From contig CATOJL010000005.1 of NCBI GenBank assembly GCA_951800155.1, positions 1-23,653 of the forward strand: 23,653 bases of DNA. Reading direction: 5' to 3'. The stretch is from an uncultured Bacilli bacterium (GTDB lineage Bacteria > Bacillota_I > Bacilli_A > RF39 > UBA660). Below, piece by piece: positions 194 to 19,656 of this stretch. Positions within the stretch are counted from its first letter, which is position 1. The number at the start of each line of letters is the position of its first letter. The notes below the pieces were generated by a model. That model made no database searches, was not told the DNA's origin, and saw only the letters and a list, made by a program, of their open reading frames with translations. The translations under genes were made by a program, and so were the position numbers.

Positions 194-946
194 TTATCTA
201 GAACTATGTATCAAGTGATAAGGATAACCTCTTTTATCTACATCATCTAAATTCAAACCTAGCTTCCTAGCTAATTTAAGTAATTCCTCATATTCTTCCA
301 TAGTAGAAGTATCATACTTTTTTACTTCAATTTCTATAAAATATCCTAAGTCTTGCACATAATCAAGTGCTATTTCATATTTACTAAGATAAAAATATGT
401 TTTTCTTACTTTGTTTACAATTGCGATTGTTTCTAAACCTAAAACTTTAAATATTTGCTCTAAATGATTTTCATCATCTATTTCAACTTCATATTCATCA
501 CAGTACATATTGTCATACCATTTTTTATAGTTTACTATTTTCTTATTGCCTCTTATTCCAATTCGTAGCCATTCATCAATTATTTCATCATCCTCTTTTA
601 AAAATTTTCTATAGGTTGGTTGGTAATATGTATCTATTTGTATACTCTCATTTAAAAATACAGCGCCCTTCTTCATAAATAATTCTATATGTTCAAACGT
701 ATCCTTTGAAAGTCTTATCTTTATCTCTGTTTCAATATTACTTTTCTCTATATCCCCGTAGATAAGATAACCAATACTACAAGCAAATAATTCACTTAAC
801 TTCACTAACGTTTCTAAACTGGGTTCTGTTCGATTCAACTCCCAACTGGATACCGTTTTATCCGTTACAAAAATTAAATCGGCTAAATCATTTTGTGTCC
901 ATCCTTTTTTCTTTCTTAAATGTGCAATTCGATTTCCTAAATGCAT
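194..946 (-). CDS. XRE-type HTH domain fused to a CYTH (class IV adenylyl cyclase / triphosphate tunnel) domain
   Basis: The N-terminus LGNRIAHLRKKKGWTQNDLADLIFVTDKTVSSWELNRTEPSLETLVKLSELF is a classic HTH_3. The C-terminal ~170 aa carry CYTH-like alternating charged beta-strand motifs (ETEIKIRL ... EYEVEID ... YFIEIEVK). The track ORF starts at a GTG (955). The ATG at 946 is preceded by GAGGTGGAAGGA and is the more likely start. Confidence 0.75.
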   Translation of the reverse strand: MHLGNRIAHLRKKKGWTQNDLADLIFVTDKTVSSWELNRTEPSLETLVKLSELFACSIGYLIYGDIEKSNIETEIKIRLSKDTFEHIELFMKKGAVFLNESIQIDTYYQPTYRKFLKEDDEIIDEWLRIGIRGNKKIVNYKKWYDNMYCDEYEVEIDDENHLEQIFKVLGLETIAIVNKVRKTYFYLSKYEIALDYVQDLGYFIEIEVKKYDTSTMEEYEELLKLARKLGLNLDDVDKRGYPYHLIHSSR

Positions 947-1055
947 TCCTTCCACCTCACAAATTCATAATACCACACAAAAACAGGAAAAATCCTCTAC
1001 ATTTTGTAGAATAAAATATGCTTTTCTCTCCTTTTGGAAGAAAGCTCTTTCATAC

Positions 1056-1475: not shown

Positions 1476-3227
1476 CTATGCCTTCCATCTAGCTTCTACA
1501 TCACAGTTACTACTATGTGGTGGTGGATTTGGTGGGTCCATTTTTATAATAATTGGAATTCGAAAAGCTTTTCCGAATCCAACACAAGTACCTGGTTGTA
1601 AACTTTTTTGTTTTTCAATAATTTCTTGATTAATATTAGGAAGCATTTTGGCAATATAGTCTAAATCCCTTGGATGATTCATTTTAAAAATTAAGAAATT
1701 AGAACATTGTGAAATCACTGTTTCTGAGATTTCAACTGGTCTTTGTGAAATTAAATTGAAAACCAATCCATATTTTCTTCCTTCTTTAGCGACACGATCA
1801 AAGATATTATAACCAAGTAAAAATTTATCATTATCGTTTTGCACATAACGGTGAGCTTCTTCTAAAAAGATATGAAAAGGAATAGATGCCCTAACTTTTA
1901 AAGCTTTCGTAAATGTGAACAACATCTTCGTATAAATTTTTGTAATGACTTTTGCAATTCGATCTTCAATATCCTCTAGATTAAAATTAATAATCTGTGC
2001 TTTCTTTCCCGGTGCATATGTAACAAGTGTTGCTATATAATTTTCTAAAGTAATATATTGTGGGTAATGAAAATATTTTGCATTTTCTCCAATTACAATC
2101 GAATGAAGTCTTACTTTTAAAGCAATTGCCTCACTATAGGTTTTCTGATTTCTTAAAAGTCCCTCTGAAATTAAAGTAAAACTTAATGCCTTCTCTAAAT
2201 CCTCTAAAGTAAAATAATGACTTTCTCTTGACTCATATTTATCTAGACTGTCATCAATAAAATCTGAAATATATTGTGTGACTAAAATGCTTTCTGTAAA
2301 ATTTCCTTCCTTATCAATAATAAAGCAATCTCTAAATTTACGAACATATCCAATTCCTTGCACAGGAGCTTCTAAGTGGAAGGCTTCTGTCGAACAAGTG
2401 GCAAGAATCGAGAAAATATCATTTCTCTTCGCTGTTGCACTTTGATTTGTATATAAAATGGTCATGATTGCTTTTGCAATTAAATGATTCTTATAACTTA
2501 CTGCCATTTCATCGGATTCAGAAAAAATTCGAACTAATTTCAGCATTTCCTCGATAATAGGAAGTTGTGAATGATCTGTCGCATCTAATAATAAAGCCAT
2601 ATCATCTACATCAAGGAGCCATAAAGGAATAGAAAGCAAGTTTCCTTCTGTATCATTTACATTTGTTGTATAGTATTTAAAATAGAAATTAGGATTGATT
2701 TTGTTAATATCTCTAAATGCCGTATGATATTCTCCATAGGCATCAAAAATAAAGAAATTCGAGCGAAGGGGAACTACATTTTTATTGGCAAATACATTCT
2801 GCATCAACCTTGCAAGTCCCCATGATTTTCCACTCCCAGTATTTCCAAAAATGGCAGAATGATTTGAGAACATATCATTTACATCAATATAAAGAGGAAA
2901 ATCATTATAAAGGGGTGATCTTCCAATTAACATGCTACTTGGTGTTTCTCTTCCGACAATCAGTCCAAATTCCTCTTCCGTGATAATACGAACTTGTGCT
3001 GATAAACTAGGCTTTCGAATTACTCCACCTAAAAAACGATTGTCCCTTATTTCCCCTAAAAAACGAACCTTTATAAGTTCCATATCCATATCTTCCACTT
3101 CACCAATAATTTTCTTTTTATTATCTTCAAAGACAATATGCATATTCATCATATCTTGCGCTAAAACATTTCCTTCTACTTTAATATGTGCGACATTATC
3201 TGATATATATATAATTTTACCAATCAT
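1476..3227 (-). CDS. HerA/DUF87-family P-loop ATPase (FtsK-HerA superfamily)
   Basis: N-terminal HAS-barrel-like segment (IGKIIYISDNVAHIKVEG ... IIGEVEDM ... VRFLGEI). Walker A is FGNTGSGKS and Walker B is HIFLEEAHRY, separated by the long helical insert typical of DUF87/HerA. A GGAGG lies 9 nt upstream of the ATG, and only 14 nt separate it from the ylxM stop. Confidence 0.75.
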   Translation of the reverse strand: MIGKIIYISDNVAHIKVEGNVLAQDMMNMHIVFEDNKKKIIGEVEDMDMELIKVRFLGEIRDNRFLGGVIRKPSLSAQVRIITEEEFGLIVGRETPSSMLIGRSPLYNDFPLYIDVNDMFSNHSAIFGNTGSGKSWGLARLMQNVFANKNVVPLRSNFFIFDAYGEYHTAFRDINKINPNFYFKYYTTNVNDTEGNLLSIPLWLLDVDDMALLLDATDHSQLPIIEEMLKLVRIFSESDEMAVSYKNHLIAKAIMTILYTNQSATAKRNDIFSILATCSTEAFHLEAPVQGIGYVRKFRDCFIIDKEGNFTESILVTQYISDFIDDSLDKYESRESHYFTLEDLEKALSFTLISEGLLRNQKTYSEAIALKVRLHSIVIGENAKYFHYPQYITLENYIATLVTYAPGKKAQIINFNLEDIEDRIAKVITKIYTKMLFTFTKALKVRASIPFHIFLEEAHRYVQNDNDKFLLGYNIFDRVAKEGRKYGLVFNLISQRPVEISETVISQCSNFLIFKMNHPRDLDYIAKMLPNINQEIIEKQKSLQPGTCVGFGKAFRIPIIIKMDPPNPPPHSSNCDVEARWKA

Positions 3228-8172: not shown

Positions 8173-9618
8173 TTACATTGCCCTTCCCTTTGTTTCATAA
8201 TGACATAATTTTTTTAATTGTTCTTCATTTATGTATATAACTTTCCCACCTATTGGATTAATTTTTCTATCACCAAATACAATCCATATTGCATCAATAC
8301 GTGTACTTGGCATATTCGCCCATCCATCCGTAAAAATAATCTTATTCTCCACTCTTCTTGTAAAAGCATTTACAGCTACATCGAAATCAGTTCCACCACC
8401 ACCATAAAATGGTACTTTATCAATATCTGCTTCATTTTTAATTTCTGTGAAGCCATAAAATTTCGTATCAAAGCACCCTACTTTCACCTTTGAACTACTC
8501 AAAATATTTTTACACTCTCTTAAAAAGTTTCGAAGAAGTACCTCGTTAATAGAACCACTCGTATCCAATACAATTTCAGTTTCAGGTTGAGGCATTTCCT
8601 CTAAATAAGCGGTTACAACTCCATCTTCAATTCCTGCATTTTCATATGACCAATCTATTTCATATTTCACAGCTTCTTTTAACAATCTTCTCCAATCAAG
8701 TAAAGGTGCAGAGGTTCCAATCGAAGTTATGTTTCTTATATTCCTATTTGTAGTATCCCCACATCCATGTGATTGCCTTACCAGTGCATCTCTCAGTTCC
8801 TCTAGTTGTTTTTTTCGCTCTATTTTATTTTGCTTAAAAAAATCTTTTTCTCCCCGTTGCGACCATTTCTCAATATCTTCTTCTCTTTCATTTTCTTTCT
8901 CGGATTCCTGCTTTTTTTCGACTTCCCCTTGTGATTCATCCTTTGCCTCTCGCTTCTGTTTTTGTTCAGAAAACAATCGTTTCACTTTTGAGAGAAAACT
9001 ATCTTTTTCTACTGTTTGTTTTTCCTCTTCATCCATTAAATCCTTTTCACAACTACTTTTTTCTTCTCTATGCTTGTCCTCAATGGCTTTCTCCCACATA
9101 GCATGTGTATCATGTCCCACGTCATGATATCCACTTTCATTTTCATCGTTTTGTTGCCTACTATTTTCCTGATTATTTGATGAATCCTGCTTTTGACCTT
9201 CTTTATTTCTATTATCCTTCTCTTGTTGCTTCTTCTCTTCCAATAACTTTTGATAAAACTCTTCTGCATCATAATCAATTGCCTCAGAAATCGCAACTAC
9301 TCCGTCTACCAAAGGTAGTCCATCTTGTTTTAAAAATGCGTTTATAACTGCGTCAGTAGCTATATTCCATAAATCTTTCTCTCTTCCTTCACTCCGAAAT
9401 ATATGATTAAATGCAATATGACAAATCACATGAGCTAGGACAAATACTTGTTCTTCCTTTGAAAGAGAGGCCAAAAAAAGGGGATTGTAATATATCGTTT
9501 TTCCATCTGTTCCTGCCGTTTCTATTGATGATTCTTCCACAAAATGAGAATGAGCCACTACACTCCCAAATAAAGGATATTTCACCAACATTCTATTAAT
9601 AATTGATTCTATACACAT
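8173..9618 (-). CDS. DUF2201-type protein: N-terminal metallopeptidase-like domain, long K/E/Q-rich linker, C-terminal VWA-like domain
   Basis: The N-terminus (GTDGKTIYYNP ... VLAHVICHIAFNH ... LWNIATDAVINAFL) resembles the DUF2201_N putative peptidase. The C-terminus (VLDTSGSI ... GGGGTDFDVAV ... IIFTDGW) is a VWA/MIDAS-like fold. Residues ~125-270 are low-complexity and charged. Confidence 0.75.
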   Translation of the reverse strand: MCIESIINRMLVKYPLFGSVVAHSHFVEESSIETAGTDGKTIYYNPLFLASLSKEEQVFVLAHVICHIAFNHIFRSEGREKDLWNIATDAVINAFLKQDGLPLVDGVVAISEAIDYDAEEFYQKLLEEKKQQEKDNRNKEGQKQDSSNNQENSRQQNDENESGYHDVGHDTHAMWEKAIEDKHREEKSSCEKDLMDEEEKQTVEKDSFLSKVKRLFSEQKQKREAKDESQGEVEKKQESEKENEREEDIEKWSQRGEKDFFKQNKIERKKQLEELRDALVRQSHGCGDTTNRNIRNITSIGTSAPLLDWRRLLKEAVKYEIDWSYENAGIEDGVVTAYLEEMPQPETEIVLDTSGSINEVLLRNFLRECKNILSSSKVKVGCFDTKFYGFTEIKNEADIDKVPFYGGGGTDFDVAVNAFTRRVENKIIFTDGWANMPSTRIDAIWIVFGDRKINPIGGKVIYINEEQLKKLCHYETKGRAM

Positions 9619-9628
9619 ATACTATTCC

Positions 9629-10030
9629 CTATATTTGAGCACATAAAGAATATACTTCTTCATTTATCTTATGAACACTTAAATCAGAACAGGTGGCAAT
9701 AATCAAGCAATTTTGAGGTAAATCAAAAGTACTTACTTTTTTATATTTTAACAACTCTACAAATTTTGTTTGTTCTTCTAATGCAATCTCATTAATATTC
9801 TCAATCAATAAAATAACAGAACCTTTTTTGCTTTTTTCAATTAATTCTCGATACCATTCTGGTGGACAAAACTCTATGTTTTCATAATGTCCATTTAATG
9901 CCAGTCTATCCACATTTGCTTTTATAATCACTGCATTATCAAAAACAGTAGAAGGTATATTTTCAATTAATAAAGGAGAAAGACCAGACTGCATATAGTT
10001 CTCTAATAAATTTACTCTTTCTTTATTCAT
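9629..10030 (-). CDS. Small AAA-like protein lacking a Walker A motif (133 aa)
   Basis: GSVILLIENINEIALEEQTKFVELLKYKKVSTFDLPQNCLIIATCSD parallels the Walker-B/sensor-1 half of the upstream ATPase (HIIFFDELTNALPSIQGMAFNIVLDG..KWKLPDNARIVAAGND). No GxxxxGK[ST] is present. An ATGA start/stop overlap with the upstream gene and a strong AAGGAGG 9 nt upstream indicate translational coupling. Confidence 0.6.
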   Translation of the reverse strand: MNKERVNLLENYMQSGLSPLLIENIPSTVFDNAVIIKANVDRLALNGHYENIEFCPPEWYRELIEKSKKGSVILLIENINEIALEEQTKFVELLKYKKVSTFDLPQNCLIIATCSDLSVHKINEEVYSLCAQI

Positions 10031-11958
10031 TTTCTTATTCCTCCTTGGGTATTATTTTCAGACATTTTTATTTCGAGTAAGCGCTCCATTCTTGCTTCAT
10101 CCCCATGTGCCCACATAGATTCAAAAACAGCTCTTGGTTCCGCTCCTAATTTCTTCATAAAATCTCTTATGATTTCAAAATGTTCATCATCAACAGAAGA
10201 TAAGCCAACAGCTGTTGCAAATTTCTGTGATACATTCATCTCTAAATCTCCCTCAGAGTAATTATGCTGAATTACATCTTCAACACATAAAACCTGAAAA
10301 CTTACAAATGCAATAAAATCTCTTGTTAACTCCTCTCCTATTAAAGCACGAAGCATCTCTGGCTTCTTCGTTTTATAAAGTACCTTAGATGCCATCTCCC
10401 ATTTTCTTGGATCTGCATTTGGTTGATCACCTGTATAAGGTGTTCTTAATACATCACTACCACTATAAGATTTATAGGCCACATAAGCATAAATCGCAGG
10501 ATGAATTGGTAGTTCTAATTCCTCTTCTTTATAATCCAATCTCTCATATTTTCCCTTTGGTGTAGATGCCCATTTTAACCAACTATCTACCGTCGTTTGA
10601 ATATATACATGTGCAAAACGATTAAATAGTGGTTCTGCCATTTGGTTTGCAGCCAATGAATCATTTAAATCATTTCCAGCTGCCACTATTCTTGCATTAT
10701 CTGGTAATTTCCACTTACCATCGACTTCCCCATCTAATACAATATTGAATGCCATTCCTTGAATCGAAGGAAGAGCATTAGTAAGTTCATCAAAAAATAT
10801 AATATGAATTTTATTGGGTTCTCTCTCACATTTTTCTTTTACCTTTAAATACCATGTCGGTGCTACATCTATCATTTCGCCCATTTCTGCATTATACACA
10901 CTTTTTCCATTTAAACTATTTGGTGTCGCATTTCTCATATATATAATTTCACAATCTGGATCAAGCTGTTTCACCCTCGCTGATTTTCCCTCACTCGATC
11001 TACCATGTAAAAAAACAGAAACATTGCTTTCGATAGCACCTCTTATGATGTCTTCTTCGGATACATTATCAAATTGGAATCCATATGGGTTTTCTTTTCT
11101 CGACTTTTGCTTACTAAGTAAAGATTCCTCTTGATCCATTGCCCCTTGCAAATATGTTTGACTAGATACAATTTCTTTTGCAAAACAAGTATCCATAAAT
11201 TGTTTGATATCTGTTCGATCAAAATCACCATCATAATCTCTTATATGTTTAAATTGCACTCCAGAAAAAATAATTTTCTTACAAAGAGCAATATTCGCCA
11301 TTTCATCGATTAACCAAGAAATTGGCTCCACTTTCACCCAATACACATAACCTGATTGCACAGTTCTACCATCAGATAAAGTCGAACCATCTGCATTCAT
11401 ATCAGCCACAAAACGGATATACTTGCTTCCATTATACGCATACTCGATATGTTTTCGTGCTTTAAAATATATTTCTACGCTTTGAGAGTTTTCTGAATCC
11501 GTTGTATACTTTTTTCCTGTTATTCTTAAATTTCCGCTATTATAAAGTCCCTCTAATAGACTTGAACTTTTTTCATCCACTATCGTTTGTGGATATTCCC
11601 CATATTCTACTTCCTTACATCCGTTAGCACCTCTCACTTCGTTCGAGGAGATAGAGGAGATTGCAGAATAAGGTAAAGCGGGGCGAGAACCTACAGACCG
11701 TTTAGAAATATCGATCCAGTGCCTAGTGCCGTGTAAATTAACCGCGCGCGCATCATTGTCACCATCAGATGACTTTGTCCACCACCACCCAGTTCTATCC
11801 TTTCCTGTGTTTCCTTCGCTTGTATAATAGGACGATGCAAATCCCCCTAATAAAATAGAGAAATCTGTTATAGCACATGCTGTACCATATTTTCGAATTA
11901 TATCTAACTGATTGCTTCCAAATATCTGTTCATCCGTTAAAAATGTAAAATTGTTCAT
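10027..11958 (-). CDS. DGR target protein: N-terminal variable lectin-like (WW..S...G.RPAL type) domain + central beta-rich region + C-terminal MoxR/AAA_5-like ATPase
   Basis: It contains the VR (residues ~70-96 counted from ATG 11958). N-terminal signature: FLTDEQIFG...TGWWWTKSS...ARAV..G.......VGSRPALPY. ATPase motifs: Walker A VFLHGRSSEGKS, Walker B IHIIFFDELTNA, sensor-1 RIVAAGND, then LFNRFAHVYI. No signal peptide or TM helix is seen. The track start TTG 12006 has no SD. ATG 11958 is preceded by GGTGA at 7 nt. Confidence 0.85.
   Translation of the reverse strand: MNNFTFLTDEQIFGSNQLDIIRKYGTACAITDFSILLGGFASSYYTSEGNTGKDRTGWWWTKSSDGDNDARAVNLHGTRHWIDISKRSVGSRPALPYSAISSISSNEVRGANGCKEVEYGEYPQTIVDEKSSSLLEGLYNSGNLRITGKKYTTDSENSQSVEIYFKARKHIEYAYNGSKYIRFVADMNADGSTLSDGRTVQSGYVYWVKVEPISWLIDEMANIALCKKIIFSGVQFKHIRDYDGDFDRTDIKQFMDTCFAKEIVSSQTYLQGAMDQEESLLSKQKSRKENPYGFQFDNVSEEDIIRGAIESNVSVFLHGRSSEGKSARVKQLDPDCEIIYMRNATPNSLNGKSVYNAEMGEMIDVAPTWYLKVKEKCEREPNKIHIIFFDELTNALPSIQGMAFNIVLDGEVDGKWKLPDNARIVAAGNDLNDSLAANQMAEPLFNRFAHVYIQTTVDSWLKWASTPKGKYERLDYKEEELELPIHPAIYAYVAYKSYSGSDVLRTPYTGDQPNADPRKWEMASKVLYKTKKPEMLRALIGEELTRDFIAFVSFQVLCVEDVIQHNYSEGDLEMNVSQKFATAVGLSSVDDEHFEIIRDFMKKLGAEPRAVFESMWAHGDEARMERLLEIKMSENNTQGGIRK
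11671..11752 (-). repeat. DGR variable repeat (VR)
   Basis: 82 nt are colinear with 13251-13332. In the 73-nt core (11680-11752 vs 13260-13332), 58 positions are identical and 15 differ, all at purines of the TR sense strand. It is bounded by adenine-free GC clamps: TGCGCGCGCGGTT (5') and CGCCCCG (3'). Confidence 0.85.
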
Positions 11959-12011
11959 ATATAAATCACCAACTATATCATAACATAAATTTCCTTTTTT
12001 TGACAAATTTT

Positions 12012-13034
12012 CTATTGAAAAGGAAATGTATCCATTTTTAATTTTTTACTCTCTTTTGTGTCTTTTATATGATTATAAAAGGCATTTTTTCGAAGATACA
12101 CATATTCATCATCTACTATTCCTTTTTTATATAACTTATTTACCGTTTTTAAATGTTTTTTCAAACGTTGCTTTGATGTATATCTTAGCTTCATAATGAT
12201 TTTCCCATGATTCATTAAGATATGCCGATATCCTAAAAAATCAATTCCATTTTTTACCATTCCAATTTGTGTTTTATTATTTAATTCTAAATCCAATAAT
12301 TCTTTACATAGCTTTTCTATTTTAGTTTTACATAAAGCTAAGTACTTTTTATCCCTATGAACTAAAATCATATCATCCATATATCGCACATACCCTTTTA
12401 TTTGTAATTGCTCTTTTATATAATGGTCAACTTTATTTAAATATAAAAGGGCAAACCATTGACTAGACTGATTGCCAAGTGGTAAACCAATATTAGCACA
12501 ATTTGGTTGTTCATCAATTAACTTTTTTATCATCCACATCTCATCTTCTGAAAAATTGAGTTCTTCTAAAAGATGAATTAATATACTATGATTTATACTT
12601 GGAAAATATTTACGAATATCACATTTTAAGAAATATATATCATTATTTTTTTCTTTCCCATACTCTTTTTTCAAAAATGTATGTAATCTTTCTATAGCAA
12701 AAGTTGTCCCTTTCCCCTTTCGACATGCACAATTGTCATAGATTAATTTTTTATCTATTTTAGGTTTTAAACAAACATCACAAAAACATCGAATCATTAC
12801 TCGATCTTTAAAAGGTAAAGCTTCTATCAATCTCTCTTTCGGTTCATAAATATAAAACTCTTTATATTTGCCCATTGCATATTTCTTCCCTACCAATTCT
12901 TTATGCAAAACAGATAAGTTAAAAGACAAATTTGATTCAAATCGAATCACCTCTCCTTTATGTTGTTTTGCTATTCTACAATTTTTATATGCAACATTTA
13001 AATTTTCAAAAGAAAATATTTCGTCCAATCGCAT
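12012..13034 (-). CDS. DGR-type reverse transcriptase
   Basis: YIYEPKERLIEALPFKDRVMIRCF (RT motifs 1-2), GLPLGNQSSQWFALLYLN (the DGR-diagnostic GNxxSQ in motif 4), VRYMDDMILV (YMDD catalytic box) and GIDFLGYR. ATG 13034 (MRLDEIFSFENL) has GGGGAGG 5 nt upstream. The track extension to 13073 has no SD. Confidence 0.9.
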   Translation of the reverse strand: MRLDEIFSFENLNVAYKNCRIAKQHKGEVIRFESNLSFNLSVLHKELVGKKYAMGKYKEFYIYEPKERLIEALPFKDRVMIRCFCDVCLKPKIDKKLIYDNCACRKGKGTTFAIERLHTFLKKEYGKEKNNDIYFLKCDIRKYFPSINHSILIHLLEELNFSEDEMWMIKKLIDEQPNCANIGLPLGNQSSQWFALLYLNKVDHYIKEQLQIKGYVRYMDDMILVHRDKKYLALCKTKIEKLCKELLDLELNNKTQIGMVKNGIDFLGYRHILMNHGKIIMKLRYTSKQRLKKHLKTVNKLYKKGIVDDEYVYLRKNAFYNHIKDTKESKKLKMDTFPFQ

Positions 13035-13411
13035 AAAATCCTCCCCAAAAAATAGACACCCCTTATAACGCACAAAGAGTCCCCTGACTCGTTGCTTGTG
13101 TGAGTGTCCCTAATTCTTCCATCGCAAACTTAGGATGATATCCTTTAGCGATTAGAAAAGAAGAAAATTTCTTCACCTTACAATACGGATATATTTTTCT
13201 TAAAATATATTTCTCTGATTTGTTTTCTGAATTCAATAAAATTCCTTCAAAAGTGAATCGGGGCGATCCCCTACATCCCGTTTAGAAACATTGTTTCAGT
13301 TCCTATTTCCGTTTTAATCAACCGCGCGCGCAAGACAGCAACAGGGGCTCAAGACAAAGCACGCACAAAAATAAATTTTCTTCTTAATTAAAGGCTTTTC
13401 AACCTAAAATC
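13035..13411 (-). ncRNA. DGR template RNA region (TR plus RT-proximal structured spacer)
   Basis: Non-coding interval between avd and the RT. It is visibly more GC-rich than its surroundings. It contains the TR and an imperfect long hairpin near the RT start, with sense-strand nested stems GACAC/GTGTC, CACAA/TTGTG and GAGTC-AGGG-GACTC (about 13057-13110). Transcript boundaries are not determinable. Confidence 0.55.
13251..13332 (-). repeat. DGR template repeat (TR)
   Basis: Non-coding copy of the VR. Read in the VR frame it gives A R A V D * N G N R N * N N V S K R D V G D R P. It is rich in AAC/AAT codons, which is typical of TRs. Confidence 0.85.
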
Positions 13412-13996
13412 CTAATTTCTTTTTCTCCATCTCTCATCATCACTTTTCTTCCAAGCAACGATCAAATTAATAGTTTCTGCCAATTGCATCGAAATTTGCT
13501 TATATTGCTTTTGTAAAATGCAACCTGAACTCTCTGCAACCATAGCTATATAACCAAGCAATTTTAATTTCACAATCGCTTCTTTTTGATTCTGTTCCCT
13601 TTTTTCCTTATGTGTCATTGAGTCTATACGAATAAAATTTGCTTCCAACAAATACTCAATGGTATCTAAACAATAATTCTGCATCCGATTTACAAATACA
13701 CCTCCAAATTTTTTAGGTGATTTTTCGGTAACTGCAATAACATATGCACATAATTTTTTAGCTACTGTAATCACCACTAAATCGTTCGCATTGGAGGGAA
13801 TCTTTTCTATCACTTTCCATTCTTTATCCTCAGCTTCCAGTTTTTCTCTCATCTTTGATTCATTAAACTTTTCACTAGTCGCTAGTGCTACTCCCTTCTT
13901 AATAGCAAGCGTAGAATCTATATCATTCGCGGTTCTTTCCACAATCTCTATTTTTTTAGGAATTTTCAAATGATTATCTCTACTCACCTGTAACAT
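13412..13996 (-). CDS. avd: Avd-like DGR accessory protein (four-helix-bundle, 23S rRNA IVS-protein family) with an N-terminal extension
   Basis: The C-terminal ~125 aa (VAKKLCAYVIAVTEKSPKKF...RMQNYCLDTIEYLLEANF...IVKLKLLGYIAMVAESSGCILQKQYKQISMQLAETINLIVAWKKS) follow the Avd helix pattern, including the terminal W-K-K-S. It sits immediately upstream of the TR and RT. The first ~70 aa are extra. Confidence 0.75.
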   Translation of the reverse strand: MLQVSRDNHLKIPKKIEIVERTANDIDSTLAIKKGVALATSEKFNESKMREKLEAEDKEWKVIEKIPSNANDLVVITVAKKLCAYVIAVTEKSPKKFGGVFVNRMQNYCLDTIEYLLEANFIRIDSMTHKEKREQNQKEAIVKLKLLGYIAMVAESSGCILQKQYKQISMQLAETINLIVAWKKSDDERWRKRN

Positions 13997-15517: not shown

Positions 15518-17050
15518 ATGTATCACATGGAATATTTTACTACAAATAGATTCCTTTTTCTAGTGTCCTCAAAGAAATGTCTTGAGGAATATGAAAAAAT
15601 AGATAAATTTATAGGAATTTTAAATAAAAGTAATATAGGAAATTTGATTGAAAAGAAAATTAAGTGTAATGGTCGAACAGGATATAACCCATATGATTTA
15701 GTTGCCACAATAGTATATTGTTTCTCACAATTCAAAAGCAGTTTAAGAGAAATAGAAAAATTATGTACATTTGATTTAAGAATTATTTACTTAATGAAAC
15801 AGAAACAACCAAGTTATAACGCTATTTGTGAATGTATTAATAGATATATTTTACCTTATCAATATGAAATCTTTACTATGATAACGAAAGCAATTATCCA
15901 AGAATTTCATTTAGATATAAGCAACCAATATTTAGATGGTACTAAGATAGAAGCAAATGCAAATAAATATAAATTTGTATGGAAACCAACTACTTTTCAC
16001 AAAAGATTAGATATTAAAATAAAAAAATTATTACTATTAATGAAAATAGAAATTAATTCAATTCCTTCTGGCAAAGGAAAACGATTAACTAAAGCTCAAA
16101 AAAATTATAAATTGGCATATCAATATTTAATTAAATTATTAGAATATGAAGAAAAAGAATGTATTTGTGGTGAGAATAGAAATTCTTATTTTAAAACAGA
16201 TGAAGATGCTACTGTAATGGTATTAAAGGAAGATTATTATTCAAAATTAAGCCATGATTTTCATGCTGGATATAATATTCAAGTTTTAGTATCCAGTGGA
16301 TTAATAACGATGTATGGATTATTTCAAGATAGAAGTGATCATTATACTTTTATTCCTATGAATAATTTATACTTTAAATACTATAATAAGTATCCTAAGA
16401 ATGAATGTGCTGATTCAAGATATGGAATATACATAAATTATAAATATATGAGAAGACACAATATAGGGAATTATGTAAAATTTCAATCTTGGTCAGGAGA
16501 AGCAGATGGAAAACGTCCTCAATTTTTTTATACATTTCCTAATGGTGTCCCATGCCTGAACACTTGTATTGGTGAAGAAGTATCATTTGACAATAATCAT
16601 CATCAAAGAAATCAAGGTGGAAAACTATATAAATTTATTGGTTGTAATAGTTGTAATTATTCATATTTATGTAAGAAAAATTTAAAAAACAAAGATTTAG
16701 ATTACAGACTATATGAATTGATACCTGACTATGAATTATTAAAAGAACAAGCACGAGAGAATTTACTTAGTCCAAAAGGAATAGAAATAAGGATTAATAG
16801 AAGTATTCAAGTAGAAGGGACTTTTGGACAAATTAAACAAAATATGAATTATGAACGAATAAGAAGACGTGGTTTAGAAAGAGTATCCTGTGAAATTATG
16901 CTCATGTGTTTAGGAAGAAATGTCAGAAAATTTTTTACATTATTAAATACAGATAATATAAAAAGTAATTATTGGGAAAAATCGTCAAATTTAAAAAAAG
17001 AAAAGTTTCCTTTTCCTAAACAAAAAACTCCAAAGAAAAAAGCTGTATGA
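15518..17050 (+). CDS. IS1182-family DDE transposase
   Basis: N-terminal GRTGYNPYDLVATIVYCFSQFKSSLREIEKLC (InsH-type N domain). YLDGTKIEANANKYKFVW (first D), KTDEDATVMV...AGYNIQVLV (second D), and the C-terminal EGTFGQIKQNMNYERIRRRGLERV...LGRNVRKF block. The usual ADAGYG reads ADSRYG, so activity is unproven. Confidence 0.85.
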   Translation: MYHMEYFTTNRFLFLVSSKKCLEEYEKIDKFIGILNKSNIGNLIEKKIKCNGRTGYNPYDLVATIVYCFSQFKSSLREIEKLCTFDLRIIYLMKQKQPSYNAICECINRYILPYQYEIFTMITKAIIQEFHLDISNQYLDGTKIEANANKYKFVWKPTTFHKRLDIKIKKLLLLMKIEINSIPSGKGKRLTKAQKNYKLAYQYLIKLLEYEEKECICGENRNSYFKTDEDATVMVLKEDYYSKLSHDFHAGYNIQVLVSSGLITMYGLFQDRSDHYTFIPMNNLYFKYYNKYPKNECADSRYGIYINYKYMRRHNIGNYVKFQSWSGEADGKRPQFFYTFPNGVPCLNTCIGEEVSFDNNHHQRNQGGKLYKFIGCNSCNYSYLCKKNLKNKDLDYRLYELIPDYELLKEQARENLLSPKGIEIRINRSIQVEGTFGQIKQNMNYERIRRRGLERVSCEIMLMCLGRNVRKFFTLLNTDNIKSNYWEKSSNLKKEKFPFPKQKTPKKKAV

Positions 17051-17667: not shown

Positions 17668-18009
17668 TTATTTTATCTTTACAGGTTCTAAATTTTCAGC
17701 TAAACGTTTTTTAAATTTCTTATATATGCATTTTTGTTGTACTTTTTTAGACGCTAGAATATAAAGCTCTTTTATGTTTTTGTCTCTACCATCACTATCT
17801 GAAAAATTAAATGCTTCTATTATTTCCTCTGGCGTAAATGTTTTATCGCAATCTTGACCTAAAATTCGATCAACCATAACGTAATCTCCACGGTTCATTT
17901 CATTCACCAAACTACATAATTGACTTGATTCTAGAAATGCTGAGTTAAAAAGAATTTGCTTTTGAAAATCTATATCAAAAAGCATATACAAAAAAAGATG
18001 CTTGTTCAT
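17668..18009 (-). CDS. Hypothetical protein (113 aa) downstream of the prepilin-type gene
   Basis: Open frame starting 15 nt after the 18025 stop on the same strand. No recognisable motifs. Confidence 0.5.
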   Translation of the reverse strand: MNKHLFLYMLFDIDFQKQILFNSAFLESSQLCSLVNEMNRGDYVMVDRILGQDCDKTFTPEEIIEAFNFSDSDGRDKNIKELYILASKKVQQKCIYKKFKKRLAENLEPVKIK

Positions 18010-18024
18010 CTTTTCTTAAAAACT

Positions 18025-19656
18025 TTATTTAATGGTTATAACAGGTCTAAATCCTATCCCCAAACTTGCATTCCCATTCGTTCTATCATACGCATATAAT
18101 CCACTTGCTGTATTTCCTGAATAGCTTCCTCCACGAATCATATATTTATTGGTAGCATCTACCATATTATGCTTATCATCATACTTGCCAAATAAGGCCC
18201 CGCCAATACAGTTAGCCTCTGTATTTAAACATACTTTATTTTGGTAATAATCCACATATTTATTGTCCACAGCTATTCCATTTAAAGTTAAAGAGGTTCC
18301 ATTATAACCCATAACAAATTCTTCCAGTCCGCCAGACATATCATAAATACCTGTAATATTTCCAGAAGTTGTCCCTTTTATAGATGCATCACTTGCATAG
18401 TGATTCCGACAATCCGTTGTAACACTTCCACCTGCATTCCCAGAAGTACATCCTGTTACTGTACCTTTGTTATAATAATTATTAAGCCATATTTCTTCTT
18501 TTTTTCCATAATTAGAGTCTGTTAAATAAGCCACTGCCCCCCACTCAACATTTTTCATAAGATGTGTATCTACCTGCGTACTATTTAAGCCGAAAGAACG
18601 AGTAGATGTAGCCATATTTTTTGCTACAGTAAAGGCATTCGCAAGCGATATTCCAGACCAAGAATTTCTACCGGGTACTGTTACTAAATCAATGTGTGTC
18701 TTATTACAACTTGCTATGTCTGGTGTTTGGAAGCAACTTGTATTAATAGGAGCACTTGCTTCAAATTTTGCCACCCACATTCCCTCTAACTGCTTTCCAC
18801 CAAACTGAAAGGCTGGATGAATTTTATATCCACTTGATGGAGATGTTTTTGTTGTTTTAATAAAGTTAATAGCAAAATTTGTCCCTTCTTGTTTATATTC
18901 ATATCTAGGGATCCATACATACATTCCTGTCACATCATCTAAACTGATTCTTGTACCCGGAACTGCTCTTTGATAATAAGATCTGGCATGCTTTCCATTC
19001 GAATCTAAGCAAACAGAACCTTGTCTAGATTCACAATCAGATTTTTCTTTCGAAAACGTCACCGCATTCGCCCATTTCTTTTCTCCATAATTGTACCAAG
19101 CAGTTGTCTTATCCGCTATAACCCAATATCCTTTATCCTCTCGATATACAACTGGAACAAGTCCATCTACCAAAACAGGATAAATCCCTTCCTGTAAACT
19201 ATCATCTTTATAGGTTGGCTTTGGTGGAGCATTCACATCTGTTGCATTTCTACAATCGGTATCTTCAGACAATACATATTCAAATTCATTAAATTCATTC
19301 GTAGTTGCATAAATAATTCGCTTTAAAAAATTTTTCTTTTCTTCTTCTGTTTTGCCATAATCAATGTAATCCTGTAACTTTTCTTCCTCAACTTTTCCCG
19401 CATCAATTAGCTCTTTAATCGTGATACAATAACTTGATTTTTCCTCAGGACCAATATACAACTTCTGATATGTATTTGTATCCCCACTCGTATAACTATC
19501 CGCTGCATCATATAACATTTGCTTAGCTGTATCACTTATCGTTCCCCTTTTAGATGCTGTTAAATTTTGAATTTGAGGAAGAGCAACAATGATCACTAAT
19601 CCCATGATTATAACGACTGCTAACATTTCTACTAAAGTAAATCCACGTTTTCTCAT
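18025..19656 (-). CDS. Prepilin-type (type IV pilin / pseudopilin-like) protein with a large C-terminal FGE/lectin-like domain
   Basis: N-terminal class III signal MRKRGFTLVEMLAVVIIMGLVIIVALPQ (G/FTLxE cleavage-methylation motif). The C-terminal part has VWIPRYEY, HPAF, GMWVAKFEAS, NVEWGAVAYL and RGGSYSG, and ends in GIGFRPVITIK, as in sulfatase-modifying-factor/C-type-lectin-like folds. AGAGGGA lies upstream of the ATG. Confidence 0.8.
   Translation of the reverse strand: MRKRGFTLVEMLAVVIIMGLVIIVALPQIQNLTASKRGTISDTAKQMLYDAADSYTSGDTNTYQKLYIGPEEKSSYCITIKELIDAGKVEEEKLQDYIDYGKTEEEKKNFLKRIIYATTNEFNEFEYVLSEDTDCRNATDVNAPPKPTYKDDSLQEGIYPVLVDGLVPVVYREDKGYWVIADKTTAWYNYGEKKWANAVTFSKEKSDCESRQGSVCLDSNGKHARSYYQRAVPGTRISLDDVTGMYVWIPRYEYKQEGTNFAINFIKTTKTSPSSGYKIHPAFQFGGKQLEGMWVAKFEASAPINTSCFQTPDIASCNKTHIDLVTVPGRNSWSGISLANAFTVAKNMATSTRSFGLNSTQVDTHLMKNVEWGAVAYLTDSNYGKKEEIWLNNYYNKGTVTGCTSGNAGGSVTTDCRNHYASDASIKGTTSGNITGIYDMSGGLEEFVMGYNGTSLTLNGIAVDNKYVDYYQNKVCLNTEANCIGGALFGKYDDKHNMVDATNKYMIRGGSYSGNTASGLYAYDRTNGNASLGIGFRPVITIK

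Follow-up and report, generated by a model that had tools for sequence, protein, structure and literature searches.

The window, a stretch of 23,653 nucleotides (nt) from an uncultured gut Bacilli bacterium (assembly GCA_951800155.1, contig CATOJL010000005.1), carries a diversity-generating retroelement (DGR) directly upstream of three genes, which code for an AAA+ ATPase with a lectin-like N-terminal head, a small paralogue of the ATPase core that lacks a P-loop, and a protein that joins a zincin-like peptidase domain to a VWA domain. Comparative sequence data show that the DGR rewrites residues 74-91 of the ATPase head by adenine-directed mutagenic retrohoming. The operon may serve as a sensor in biological conflict.

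Between 13996 and 8173 six units are arranged head to tail in the order Avd, a template repeat (TR), a DGR-type reverse transcriptase (RT), the 643-aa target of the DGR, a 133-aa open reading frame (ORF) and a DUF2201_N/VWA gene. All coordinates are positions within the window, and all parts of the operon lie on its minus strand. The stop codon of the RT is 53 nt from the ATG of the target, which is at 11958, the start of the 133-aa ORF overlaps the stop of the target as ATGA, and a gap of 10 nt leads from this ORF to the 481-aa DUF2201 gene. All five ORFs (Avd, RT, target, small ORF and partner) are full-length and open. Coordinates, order and spacing agree with those given in an earlier reading of the window made from its sequence alone (hereafter the sequence-only reading), and we hold this anatomical description with high confidence. 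The features are as follows.

13996-13412, minus strand: Avd accessory protein, 194 aa, with a four-helix region at about residues 69-192
13332-13256, minus strand: TR, 77 nt, non-coding, found by repeat search and with boundaries refined against relatives
13255-13035, minus strand: spacer between TR and RT, defined by position only
13034-12012, minus strand: DGR-type RT, 340 aa, matching RVT_1 (E 6.6e-18)
11958-10027, minus strand: target, 643 aa, described from an AlphaFold2 (AF2) model, Foldseek, PHROG and Pfam matches of homologues
11752-11676, minus strand: variable repeat (VR) ARAVNLHGTRHWIDISKRSVGSRPA, target residues 70-94, found by repeat search
11004-10981, 10803-10786 and 10683-10672, minus strand: ATPase motifs of the target read from its translation, Walker A GRSSEGKS, Walker B IIFFDE and sensor-1 AAGN
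10030-9629, minus strand: predicted P-loop-less AAA+ core paralogue, 133 aa, assigned from its homologue set and hhalign
9618-8173, minus strand: partner, 481 aa, matching DUF2201_N (E 2.8e-34) and the VWA-like DUF2201 (E 2.8e-12)

Diversification of the target head

When one genome of each species was scanned, 147 relatives of the target came up, and 76 loci were retrieved for comparison. Of the 18 loci whose RT is full-length, 13 have a TR/VR pair of 76-100 nt, with 7-16 mismatches at adenines and 0-2 at other bases. Locus L009, which has Avd and a partial RT match, also holds such a pair, while loci without RT have no TR. The strain of locus L001 matches the window at 98.8% identity over 5.5 kb, and of the roughly 62 substitutions between the two, 17 lie in the VR; its own TR/VR pair differs at 12 adenines and at one other base.

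Within the species of the window, the comparison covers 12 full-length alleles from different metagenome samples, which belong to the 90%-identity cluster holding the window protein. All 12 have distinct VRs, 14 of their 23 variable columns fall within the 26-residue VR segment, and the mean number of pairwise differences is 8.7 in this segment versus 1.8 in the remaining 633 residues. Among 57 homologues the entropy peak is confined to target residues 74-88. The control is the species of locus L090 (protein P0012), which has an RT remnant upstream of the target (152 residues aligned), no Avd and no TR; its 19 alleles have 33 variable columns, none of them in the VR, which, as judged from these sequences, is frozen after loss of the DGR. 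Because of the VR variation and of this control, mutagenic retrohoming is judged to be ongoing or very recent in the species of the window. The DGR activity claimed by the sequence-only reading is therefore borne out by a VR that varies between strains instead of being invariant.

Some strains of this species carry damaged copies of the operon. L001 and L002 lack 143 nt of Avd (window 13644-13502) and one nt of an A-run in the RT (12652). L082-L084 have a short Avd, a substitution of Glu64 of the partner by Ala (E64A) and a target reduced to 603 aa by a frameshift, one GC unit being missing from the (GC)n tract that borders the VR on its 5' side.

The repeat in the window had been described as 83 nt long; it is real, and its length is reduced to 77 nt because the last two mismatches of the longer version fall outside the homology seen in relatives. 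Over 77 nt, TR and VR differ at 11 adenines and five guanines of the TR, so that 69% of the mismatches are at A, and over 83 nt they differ at 11 of 24 adenines versus 7 of 59 other bases (Fisher p = 0.002). Common DGR finders set thresholds of about 75-80% of mismatches at A, which the window pair would miss. A second VR was searched for in the window and none was found, and the sequence downstream of the VR does not fold into a DNA hairpin or cruciform better than shuffled sequences do (z = +1.3).

The G-site mismatches of the window VR are at 11739, 11709, 11697, 11689 and 11688 (three G->T and two G->A), and they fall in target codons N74, I84, S88, G90, where the change is silent, and S91. 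All five are unique to the window allele and are reproduced in the independent assembly L079. Three of them lie close together at 11697-11688, beside GGGGCTCGCCCC, which is conserved at the VR 3' end. At a background divergence of about 0.8%, the number of G-site changes expected in the VR is far below one, and the RT of the Bordetella phage DGR, bRT, misincorporates at G in about 1.6% of cases (PMC7826257). Possible sources are an older TR with adenines at these sites, selected point mutations, recombination between strains or an RT that is less specific for A. Drift of the TR is partly plausible, because ancestral TRs read AAC or AAT where the window TR reads GAT; against it, sister strains with a near-identical TR have VRs consistent with that TR.

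At the 3' end of the repeats, relatives have GGGGCTCGCCC(C/A)G in TR and VR alike, and the window VR has GGTT instead of GGGG in its G-run. In every locus with a DGR, GAT in the TR stands against GCT in the VR near the repeat 3' end (window 13258 and 11678), and this GCT encodes the Ala of an invariant RPAL; the constant difference reflects either strong selection or a transfer boundary (IMH versus IMH*, where IMH is initiation of mutagenic homing). A further site, 13267, is A in the window TR (codon GAT) and C (GCT) in the same-species strains examined and in most relatives with a DGR, and some alleles of the species have Val (GTT) at the matching VR codon despite GCT in their own TR, which hints at polymorphism or turnover of the TR.

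Translated in the frame of the VR, the window TR reads ARAVD*NGNRN*NNVSKRDVGDRPD, with in-frame stops TAA at 13316-13314 and TGA at 13298-13296. TRs of the closest clade carry one or two in-frame stops as well (L001, L005, L009, L010, L014, L016 and L020), and in the species-level genomes L005, L014 and L020 the VR retains the TR stop at exactly that codon, which truncates the target. The window VR is in frame, both stops of the TR having been mutated away, and the VR position that alternates between W and C corresponds to the TGA codon of the TR. We estimate that about 25-31% of homing events would keep the frame open, at a per-adenine substitution rate of 0.46 (11/24 in the window) to 0.52 (51.6% measured for bRT; PMC7826257), and many homing events should therefore yield null alleles. 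AAY codons are said to "preclude a stop codon" in DGR templates (PMC7826257), and the stop-bearing TR, as read from these sequences, departs from this usual design.

The proteins of the retroelement are well matched by profiles, which upholds the RT and Avd assignments of the sequence-only reading. Besides RVT_1, the RT matches PHROG 1423 (9e-97), and its translation shows LGNQSSQ, which follows the DGR motif [I/V/L]GxxxSQ, and YMDD. Its best PDB match, which far outscores the RTs of group II introns, retrons and Drt, is 8ub7_A (E 4.9e-36), which is deposited as "Reverse transcriptase" and belongs to a series that we take to be Bordetella phage bRT. The nearest phage RTs are about 39% identical, and that of gut phage nd12 is among them. 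Avd matches PHROG 3206, "Avd protein of DGR" (E 2.6e-16), and, under the curated cut-offs, NF033474 (DivGenRetAVD; 4.5e-7) and PF22296 (bAvd; 8.4e-6); a sequence search against PDB returned no match for it. In loci with a DGR, tblastn alignments cover all 194 aa of Avd at 60-85% identity. Residues 1-68 (13996-13793) are an N-terminal extension ahead of the Avd fold, which is kept in these relatives. By analogy with the BPP-1 DGR, the TR-RT spacer is presumed to be the 3' part of the DGR RNA.

The target, its small paralogue and the zincin/VWA partner

The target belongs to a large family, with 3,728 matches in a 90%-clustered collection and 5,433 clusters at 50% identity (E up to 0.001). Pfam gives nothing significant for the window protein itself, so homologues were used to assign its domains. 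An AF2 model built from an alignment of 81 sequences (A3) has a mean predicted local distance difference test (pLDDT) score of 82.5; a model from a shallow alignment (A1, 57 sequences, 74-97% identical) was discarded at pLDDT 40. In the accepted model residues 1-265 are predicted with confidence, and they divide into a head of mixed alpha/beta structure (about 1-115) and a middle domain rich in beta strands (about 115-265). A disordered linker (266-285) leads on to the AAA+ part (about 300-636), whose C-terminal region is helical. In this model the VR takes up strands 69-73 and 79-83 together with the loops that follow.

The head is related to DUF6273 and appears C-type-lectin-like by homology. 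Some target homologues are flagged PF19789 (DUF6273), and the second head copy of protein P0002, which is 52% identical to window residues 3-128, reaches 27.3 bits for DUF6273 at a cut-off of 23.5. DUF6273 is reported to be a C-lectin-like DGR target domain, in which the VR forms a beta-hairpin (PMC10743442; bioRxiv 2024.10.15.618418). The window protein itself has a weak match to Fib_succ_major (E 0.038) in this region. Foldseek of the full-length model returns AAA+ matches only, with no domain-level fold match for the head. Designed and PQQ beta-propellers, which came up with the head profile (A5) against PDB, were rejected as a repeat-additive artefact, no single stretch being significant. 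The lectin-like N-terminal module that the sequence-only reading placed around the VR is supported in this DUF6273-related form, and its VR is the sole one in the window. Several relatives of about 900 aa (P0002, P0003, P0288, P0111 and others) have the N-terminal head and middle module in duplicate, and loci L027, L042, L068, L074 and L075 hold two paralogous target genes. Repeats between these paralogous targets were considered as TR/VR pairs and rejected, since their differences are mostly at bases other than A and reflect paralogy.

The C-terminal half of the target is assigned, from motifs and from its model, to the MoxR/AAA_5/NtrC/MCM group of AAA+ ATPases, and at this group level the MoxR/AAA_5-like ATPase of the sequence-only reading stands. 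The motifs are GRSSEGKS at residues 319-326, IIFFDE at 386-391 and AAGN at 426-429, and their general forms, GxSSEGKS, hhhFFDE and AAGN, are conserved over the 76 fetched loci, one of which has NE at Walker B. Among solved structures Foldseek matches the model to MCM subunits and NorQ, and among viral models to phage proteins called "dynein-related AAA", "COG0714 MoxR-like", CobS and AAA_5. PHROG 1297 ("ATPase") matches residues 303-609 (E 2.4e-37), and the best PDB match of the target profile is NtrC1. AAA_5 is weak in the window protein (E 0.24), and relatives reach up to 48 bits for AAA_5 and 38.7 bits for AAA_3, and also match Sigma54_activat; bpMoxR scores only E 0.006-0.009 in relatives. 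The target is predicted to be cytoplasmic. A crude hydropathy scan found no transmembrane segment or signal-like N-terminus in the target, the small protein or the partner, as the sequence-only reading had held, and their Kyte-Doolittle 19-residue maxima are 1.17, 1.02 and 1.37, versus 2.67 for the RodA control.

The 133-aa protein had been called an AAA remnant, but it is not a decayed fragment. It has 345 homologues, of which 117 of the 120 listed are exactly 133 aa long, with many invariant positions. It aligns with target residues 304-450 in hhalign (probability 87.5%, E 3.5e-6) and with the target in pairwise BLASTP (E 0.002). It has no P-loop, and EN or DK stands where Walker B has DE. 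By these sequence features it is a conserved, probably catalytically dead AAA+ paralogue of the target core.

The partner is confirmed by Pfam as the DUF2201-type and VWA protein of the sequence-only reading. An E/K-rich linker (about 121-335) joins its zincin-like and VWA domains, and the metal ion-dependent adhesion site (MIDAS) motif of the latter, DTSGS at 8565-8551, is conserved in all loci. Across the HExxH helix the partner has a weak match to the minigluzincin MJ1213. In the window this motif reads HVICH (9432-9418), as Glu64 is replaced by Val (E64V; codon 9429-9427). HExxH is intact in about 60 of 62 relatives, with the family consensus AHE[VI]CHIAFNH, so the term pseudo-peptidase, which the protein had been given, does not suit the family, and loss of the Glu is strain-specific. 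Residue 64 is Val in the window and L079, Ala in L082-L084 and Glu in L001, L002 and L080, which indicates that the catalytic Glu was lost twice independently in one species. Because E64V substitutes this catalytic residue, the output arm of the window copy may be disabled.

Distribution and chromosomal setting

Of the 76 fetched loci, 66 contain the target, the small ORF and the VWA gene together. DGR linkage was counted over 57 species-level loci with at least 2.3 kb of upstream sequence, where 18 have a full-length RT, seven have RT fragments only and 32 have no RT. In these genomes the triad of ATPase, small protein and VWA partner is thus the conserved core, to which the DGR is a frequent, dispensable and often-lost addition. 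The sequence-only reading had the DGR hard-wired to the ATPase/VWA operon; homologous operons do adjoin DGR parts, but with 32 of 57 loci free of RT the hard-wiring was overstated.

In the sister species L005 the operon is at the same chromosomal site, and flanking proteins are 90-97% identical to those of the window, versus 80% for Avd, 82% for RT, 77% for the target, 82% for the small protein and 60% for the partner. The target family is cellular as far as database sequences tell, since a full-length relative occurs in 1 of 2.9 million viral contigs versus 147 species-level genomes, and the N-terminal module has no match among 50,697 phage records. The ATPase domain and the partner do have phage homologues: 550 records match the former and 431 the latter, including virulent, jumbo and N4-like phages, and the partner matches PHROG 1314 (E 3.3e-61). 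In phages the genes for the ATPase and the DUF2201 partner are a few kb apart with small ORFs between them. In Pseudomonas phage PA5oct (L085, 234078-239153) a homing endonuclease is inserted between the two; this endonuclease, which follows the ATPase, was considered as the DUF2201 partner and rejected, since it is a genuine endonuclease and the gene after it encodes the partner. The label "HNH endonuclease" of PHROG 1314, with "HNH/homing endonuclease" in several records of the DUF2201 protein, may be a misnomer that comes from such inserted homing endonucleases. The nearest RTs (about 39% identical) come from gut phages including nd12, whose DGR has the order Avd-TR-RT-target and a VR in the N-terminal domain as in the window, and for this reason a gut-phage-type DGR with a DUF6273 head may have been grafted onto an ATPase/VWA module.

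The window has a G+C content of about 30%, and ordinary chromosomal genes flank the operon. On one side are RodA and an insertion sequence (IS) transposase, DDE_Tnp_1_6 at 15518-17050 on the plus strand, 1.5 kb off the operon, which is present in L001 at 99% identity. On the other side a small protein resembling PTS-EIIB is encoded along with a histidine kinase, RNase J and FtsY; neither flank contains phage structural genes. Near one window end are an HTH-CYTH fusion protein (194-955, minus strand) and a HerA-like DUF87 ATPase (1476-3227, minus strand), and near the opposite end is a pair of genes of 113 and 543 aa (17668-19656, minus strand), which have no Pfam match.

About 30 nt upstream of the Avd start, at 14052-14027 of the minus strand, is the inverted repeat GTATCTAGGAAAATTTTTCTAGATGC with an 11-bp stem, a possible operator or terminator-like element. 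In the gap that separates the RT stop from the ATG of the target, a sigma-70-like match (12006-11977, minus strand; TTGTCA, 18 nt, TG-TATGAT), defined by consensus only, could allow transcription of the triad without the DGR. Scans of the whole window gave 37 promoter matches versus 33 expected, which is uninformative, and six terminator matches versus 2.2 expected, none placed to mark an operon end. The window has no Rfam match and no tRNA genes.

Possible function and comparison with known systems

The function that we favour, with a probability that we put at about even, is that of a DGR-diversified conflict sensor. The variable head would present a binding surface for a cytoplasmic ligand that itself varies, with proteins of phages or other invaders as the most plausible candidates, and ligand binding would be coupled through the ATPase ring and the VWA partner to the metallopeptidase activity of the partner, a logic that follows the one proposed for MoxR-vWA conflict systems. 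Each homing event would change the specificity and would also have a high chance of switching the sensor off. A costly conflict system fits the operon because it evolves fast relative to its flanks, is frequently lost, bears effector knock-outs and has a template prone to null alleles; in the species of the window the lesions are several and independent (E64V, E64A, the Avd deletion, the RT frameshift and the target frameshift). A more elaborate version, which is itself unlikely, takes the alleles as an anticipatory repertoire of intracellular receptors, the nonsense-bearing DGR as a randomiser of specificity combined with a stochastic ON/OFF switch, and the knock-outs as the footprint of an autoimmunity cost.

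Several observations weigh against a conflict sensor. PADLOC-DB v2, searched with E up to 0.1, gives no match for Avd, the target ATPase, the small protein or the partner, and matches the RT to generic RT models only. DGR-less relatives are found among housekeeping genes (tRNA synthetase, RuvAB, PNPase and MutS) and not in defence islands. The conflict or immunity role proposed by the sequence-only reading thus stays at the level of inference. Homologues of ATPase and partner are common in virulent and jumbo phages, so a role of the triad in host defence is not obvious. The five G-site mismatches of the window pair are not explicable by adenine mutagenesis. The head of the window protein is below significance for DUF6273, its C-lectin fold resting on transitive Pfam homology and on literature, and the MoxR assignment holds at the level of the AAA_5/NtrC/MCM group, with no specific MoxR subfamily.

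The triad could instead be a MoxR-type remodelling or maturation machine, comparable to NorQ/NorD, CbbQ/CbbO or RavA/ViaA, whose head recruits a cellular client or a cytoplasmic glycan or metabolite and whose DGR tunes client specificity as a physiological adaptation to the gut. The MoxR-VWA pairs characterised so far are, in the portions of the literature consulted, chaperones or metal-insertion machines. Also in favour are the housekeeping surroundings of the more than half of loci that lack a DGR, the silence of PADLOC and the strong conservation of the triad, in which the Walker motifs, HExxH and MIDAS are preserved. Twelve different binding surfaces in 12 samples, however, are not what a housekeeping client would select for, and neither a nonsense-yielding template, nor repeated knock-outs in one species, nor evolution much faster than that of the flanking genes would be expected of such a machine, which we consider distinctly improbable. 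An origin or use in mobile elements, with the operon as a resident or domesticated phage module serving a prophage or satellite in superinfection exclusion or host takeover, would account for the many phage homologues of ATPase and partner (PHROG 1297 and PHROG 1314), for the gut-phage affinity and gene order of the DGR and for the IS transposase nearby. The near-absence of full-length relatives from viral contigs, the N-terminal module without phage match, the flanks of RodA, histidine kinase, RNase J and FtsY and the occupation of the same chromosomal site in L005 speak against it and make it very improbable.

A different question is whether the window copy is a decaying relic, with a dead peptidase, a GGGG to GGTT change, in the G-run of the GC-rich element at the VR 3' end, that might block further homing and VR changes that do not come from the present TR; this we regard as rather doubtful, though less so than the machine or the phage module. 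E64V is shared by the window and L079 while sister strains have Glu, the G-site mismatches are private to this allele and partly crowd beside GGGGCTCGCCCC, sister strains show decay of Avd (minus 143 nt), RT (minus 1 nt) and target, and RT fragments persist in seven species. Yet none of the five ORFs from Avd to the partner is truncated or interrupted, the VR stays in frame and has lost both TR stops, the importance of the G-run for homing is presumed by analogy, and Val in place of the catalytic Glu matters only if the peptidase is the output.

If a conflict sensor is indeed encoded, DGR-based antigen-sensor systems would extend beyond large-genome multicellular bacteria to small unicellular host-associated Bacilli, with a different wiring in which receptor and motor form one protein, instead of the receptor being joined to a vWA adaptor, and the widespread phage ATPase/DUF2201 pair would gain a functional lead. 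The stop codons of the TR run against the textbook view of AAY codons and suggest that the DGR doubles as a phase-variation device. The family is abundant, with at least 147 species-level genomes, the 5,433 clusters given above and many alleles in public gut metagenomes, and it offers natural controls in DGR-positive, DGR-remnant and DGR-free lineages and in alleles with and without the catalytic Glu. It makes the question of what intracellular DGR targets sense directly testable.

An incomplete search of the literature on DUF2201, and on DGRs with AAA, ATPase or VWA proteins in gut bacteria, found no description of this family. In earlier surveys N-terminal VRs are few, and targets with a Midasin-type AAA motif occur in the candidate phyla radiation (CPR) (Wu et al. 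2018); as a rule VRs lie at the C-terminus, and cellular targets are mostly anchored in the membrane or secreted (Roux et al. 2021). The phage pairs of PHROG 1297 and PHROG 1314, as in Pseudomonas phage PA5oct and Acinetobacter phage Ab2712, have an ATPase and a partner homologous to those of the window, but their ATPases are about 370 aa long, lack the lectin head and the middle domain and have no associated DGR. NorQ-NorD, CbbQ-CbbO, RavA-ViaA and BchI-BchD (Mg-chelatase) belong to the same structural group of AAA+ proteins and also have an adjoining VWA protein with MIDAS; unlike the window operon they have no hypervariable head, DGR, dead-AAA subunit or zincin on the VWA partner, and their clients are defined metallo-enzymes.

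The tentaclins of phages nd4 and nd12 (Baykov et al. 2023, PMC10743442) resemble the window operon in the order Avd-TR-RT-target with the target right after the RT, in a VR that lies in an N-terminal DUF6273/C-lectin-like domain and is preceded by GW(W/Y)WW, and in an RT that is 39% identical. As receptor-binding proteins of phages, they continue from the head into Ig-like domains, whereas in the chromosomal window protein the head is followed by a beta-rich domain and AAA+. The window target was considered as a tentaclin and rejected, since it has no significant pairwise similarity to nd12 target1 and its N-terminal module has no phage match.

The closest systems in logic are the vWA-MoxR ternary conflict systems with VMAP or iSTAND, to which comparative genomics has coupled DGRs (Kaur et al. 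2020, eLife, PMC7159879; Doré et al. 2024, PNAS, PMC10907252). DGRs with MoxR/vWA conflict systems have therefore already been predicted computationally, and the general idea is not new. As appears to be the case in the window, a DGR diversifies a lectin-fold domain in a system of MoxR-like AAA+, vWA and peptidase components, several targets are predicted to be cytoplasmic and the function is known only from comparative genomics, the proposed role being that of an anticipatory sensor or effector in biological conflict. Those systems have the VR in a C-terminal FGS/CLec domain on the vWA component or on a separate target, with MoxR as a separate gene, while in the window it lies in a DUF6273-like domain at the N-terminus of the ATPase. 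As third component they have VMAP or iSTAND, where the window has the 133-aa dead AAA+ paralogue, and their peptidase is a trypsin or caspase on VMAP, where the window has a zincin (DUF2201_N) on the vWA protein. Their hosts are multicellular cyanobacteria, gammaproteobacteria and actinobacteria, in contrast to the unicellular low-GC gut Bacilli of this operon. By its sequence, the window system would work like the vWA-MoxR ternary systems but falls outside the features that define their members, its receptor being carried by the ATPase itself.

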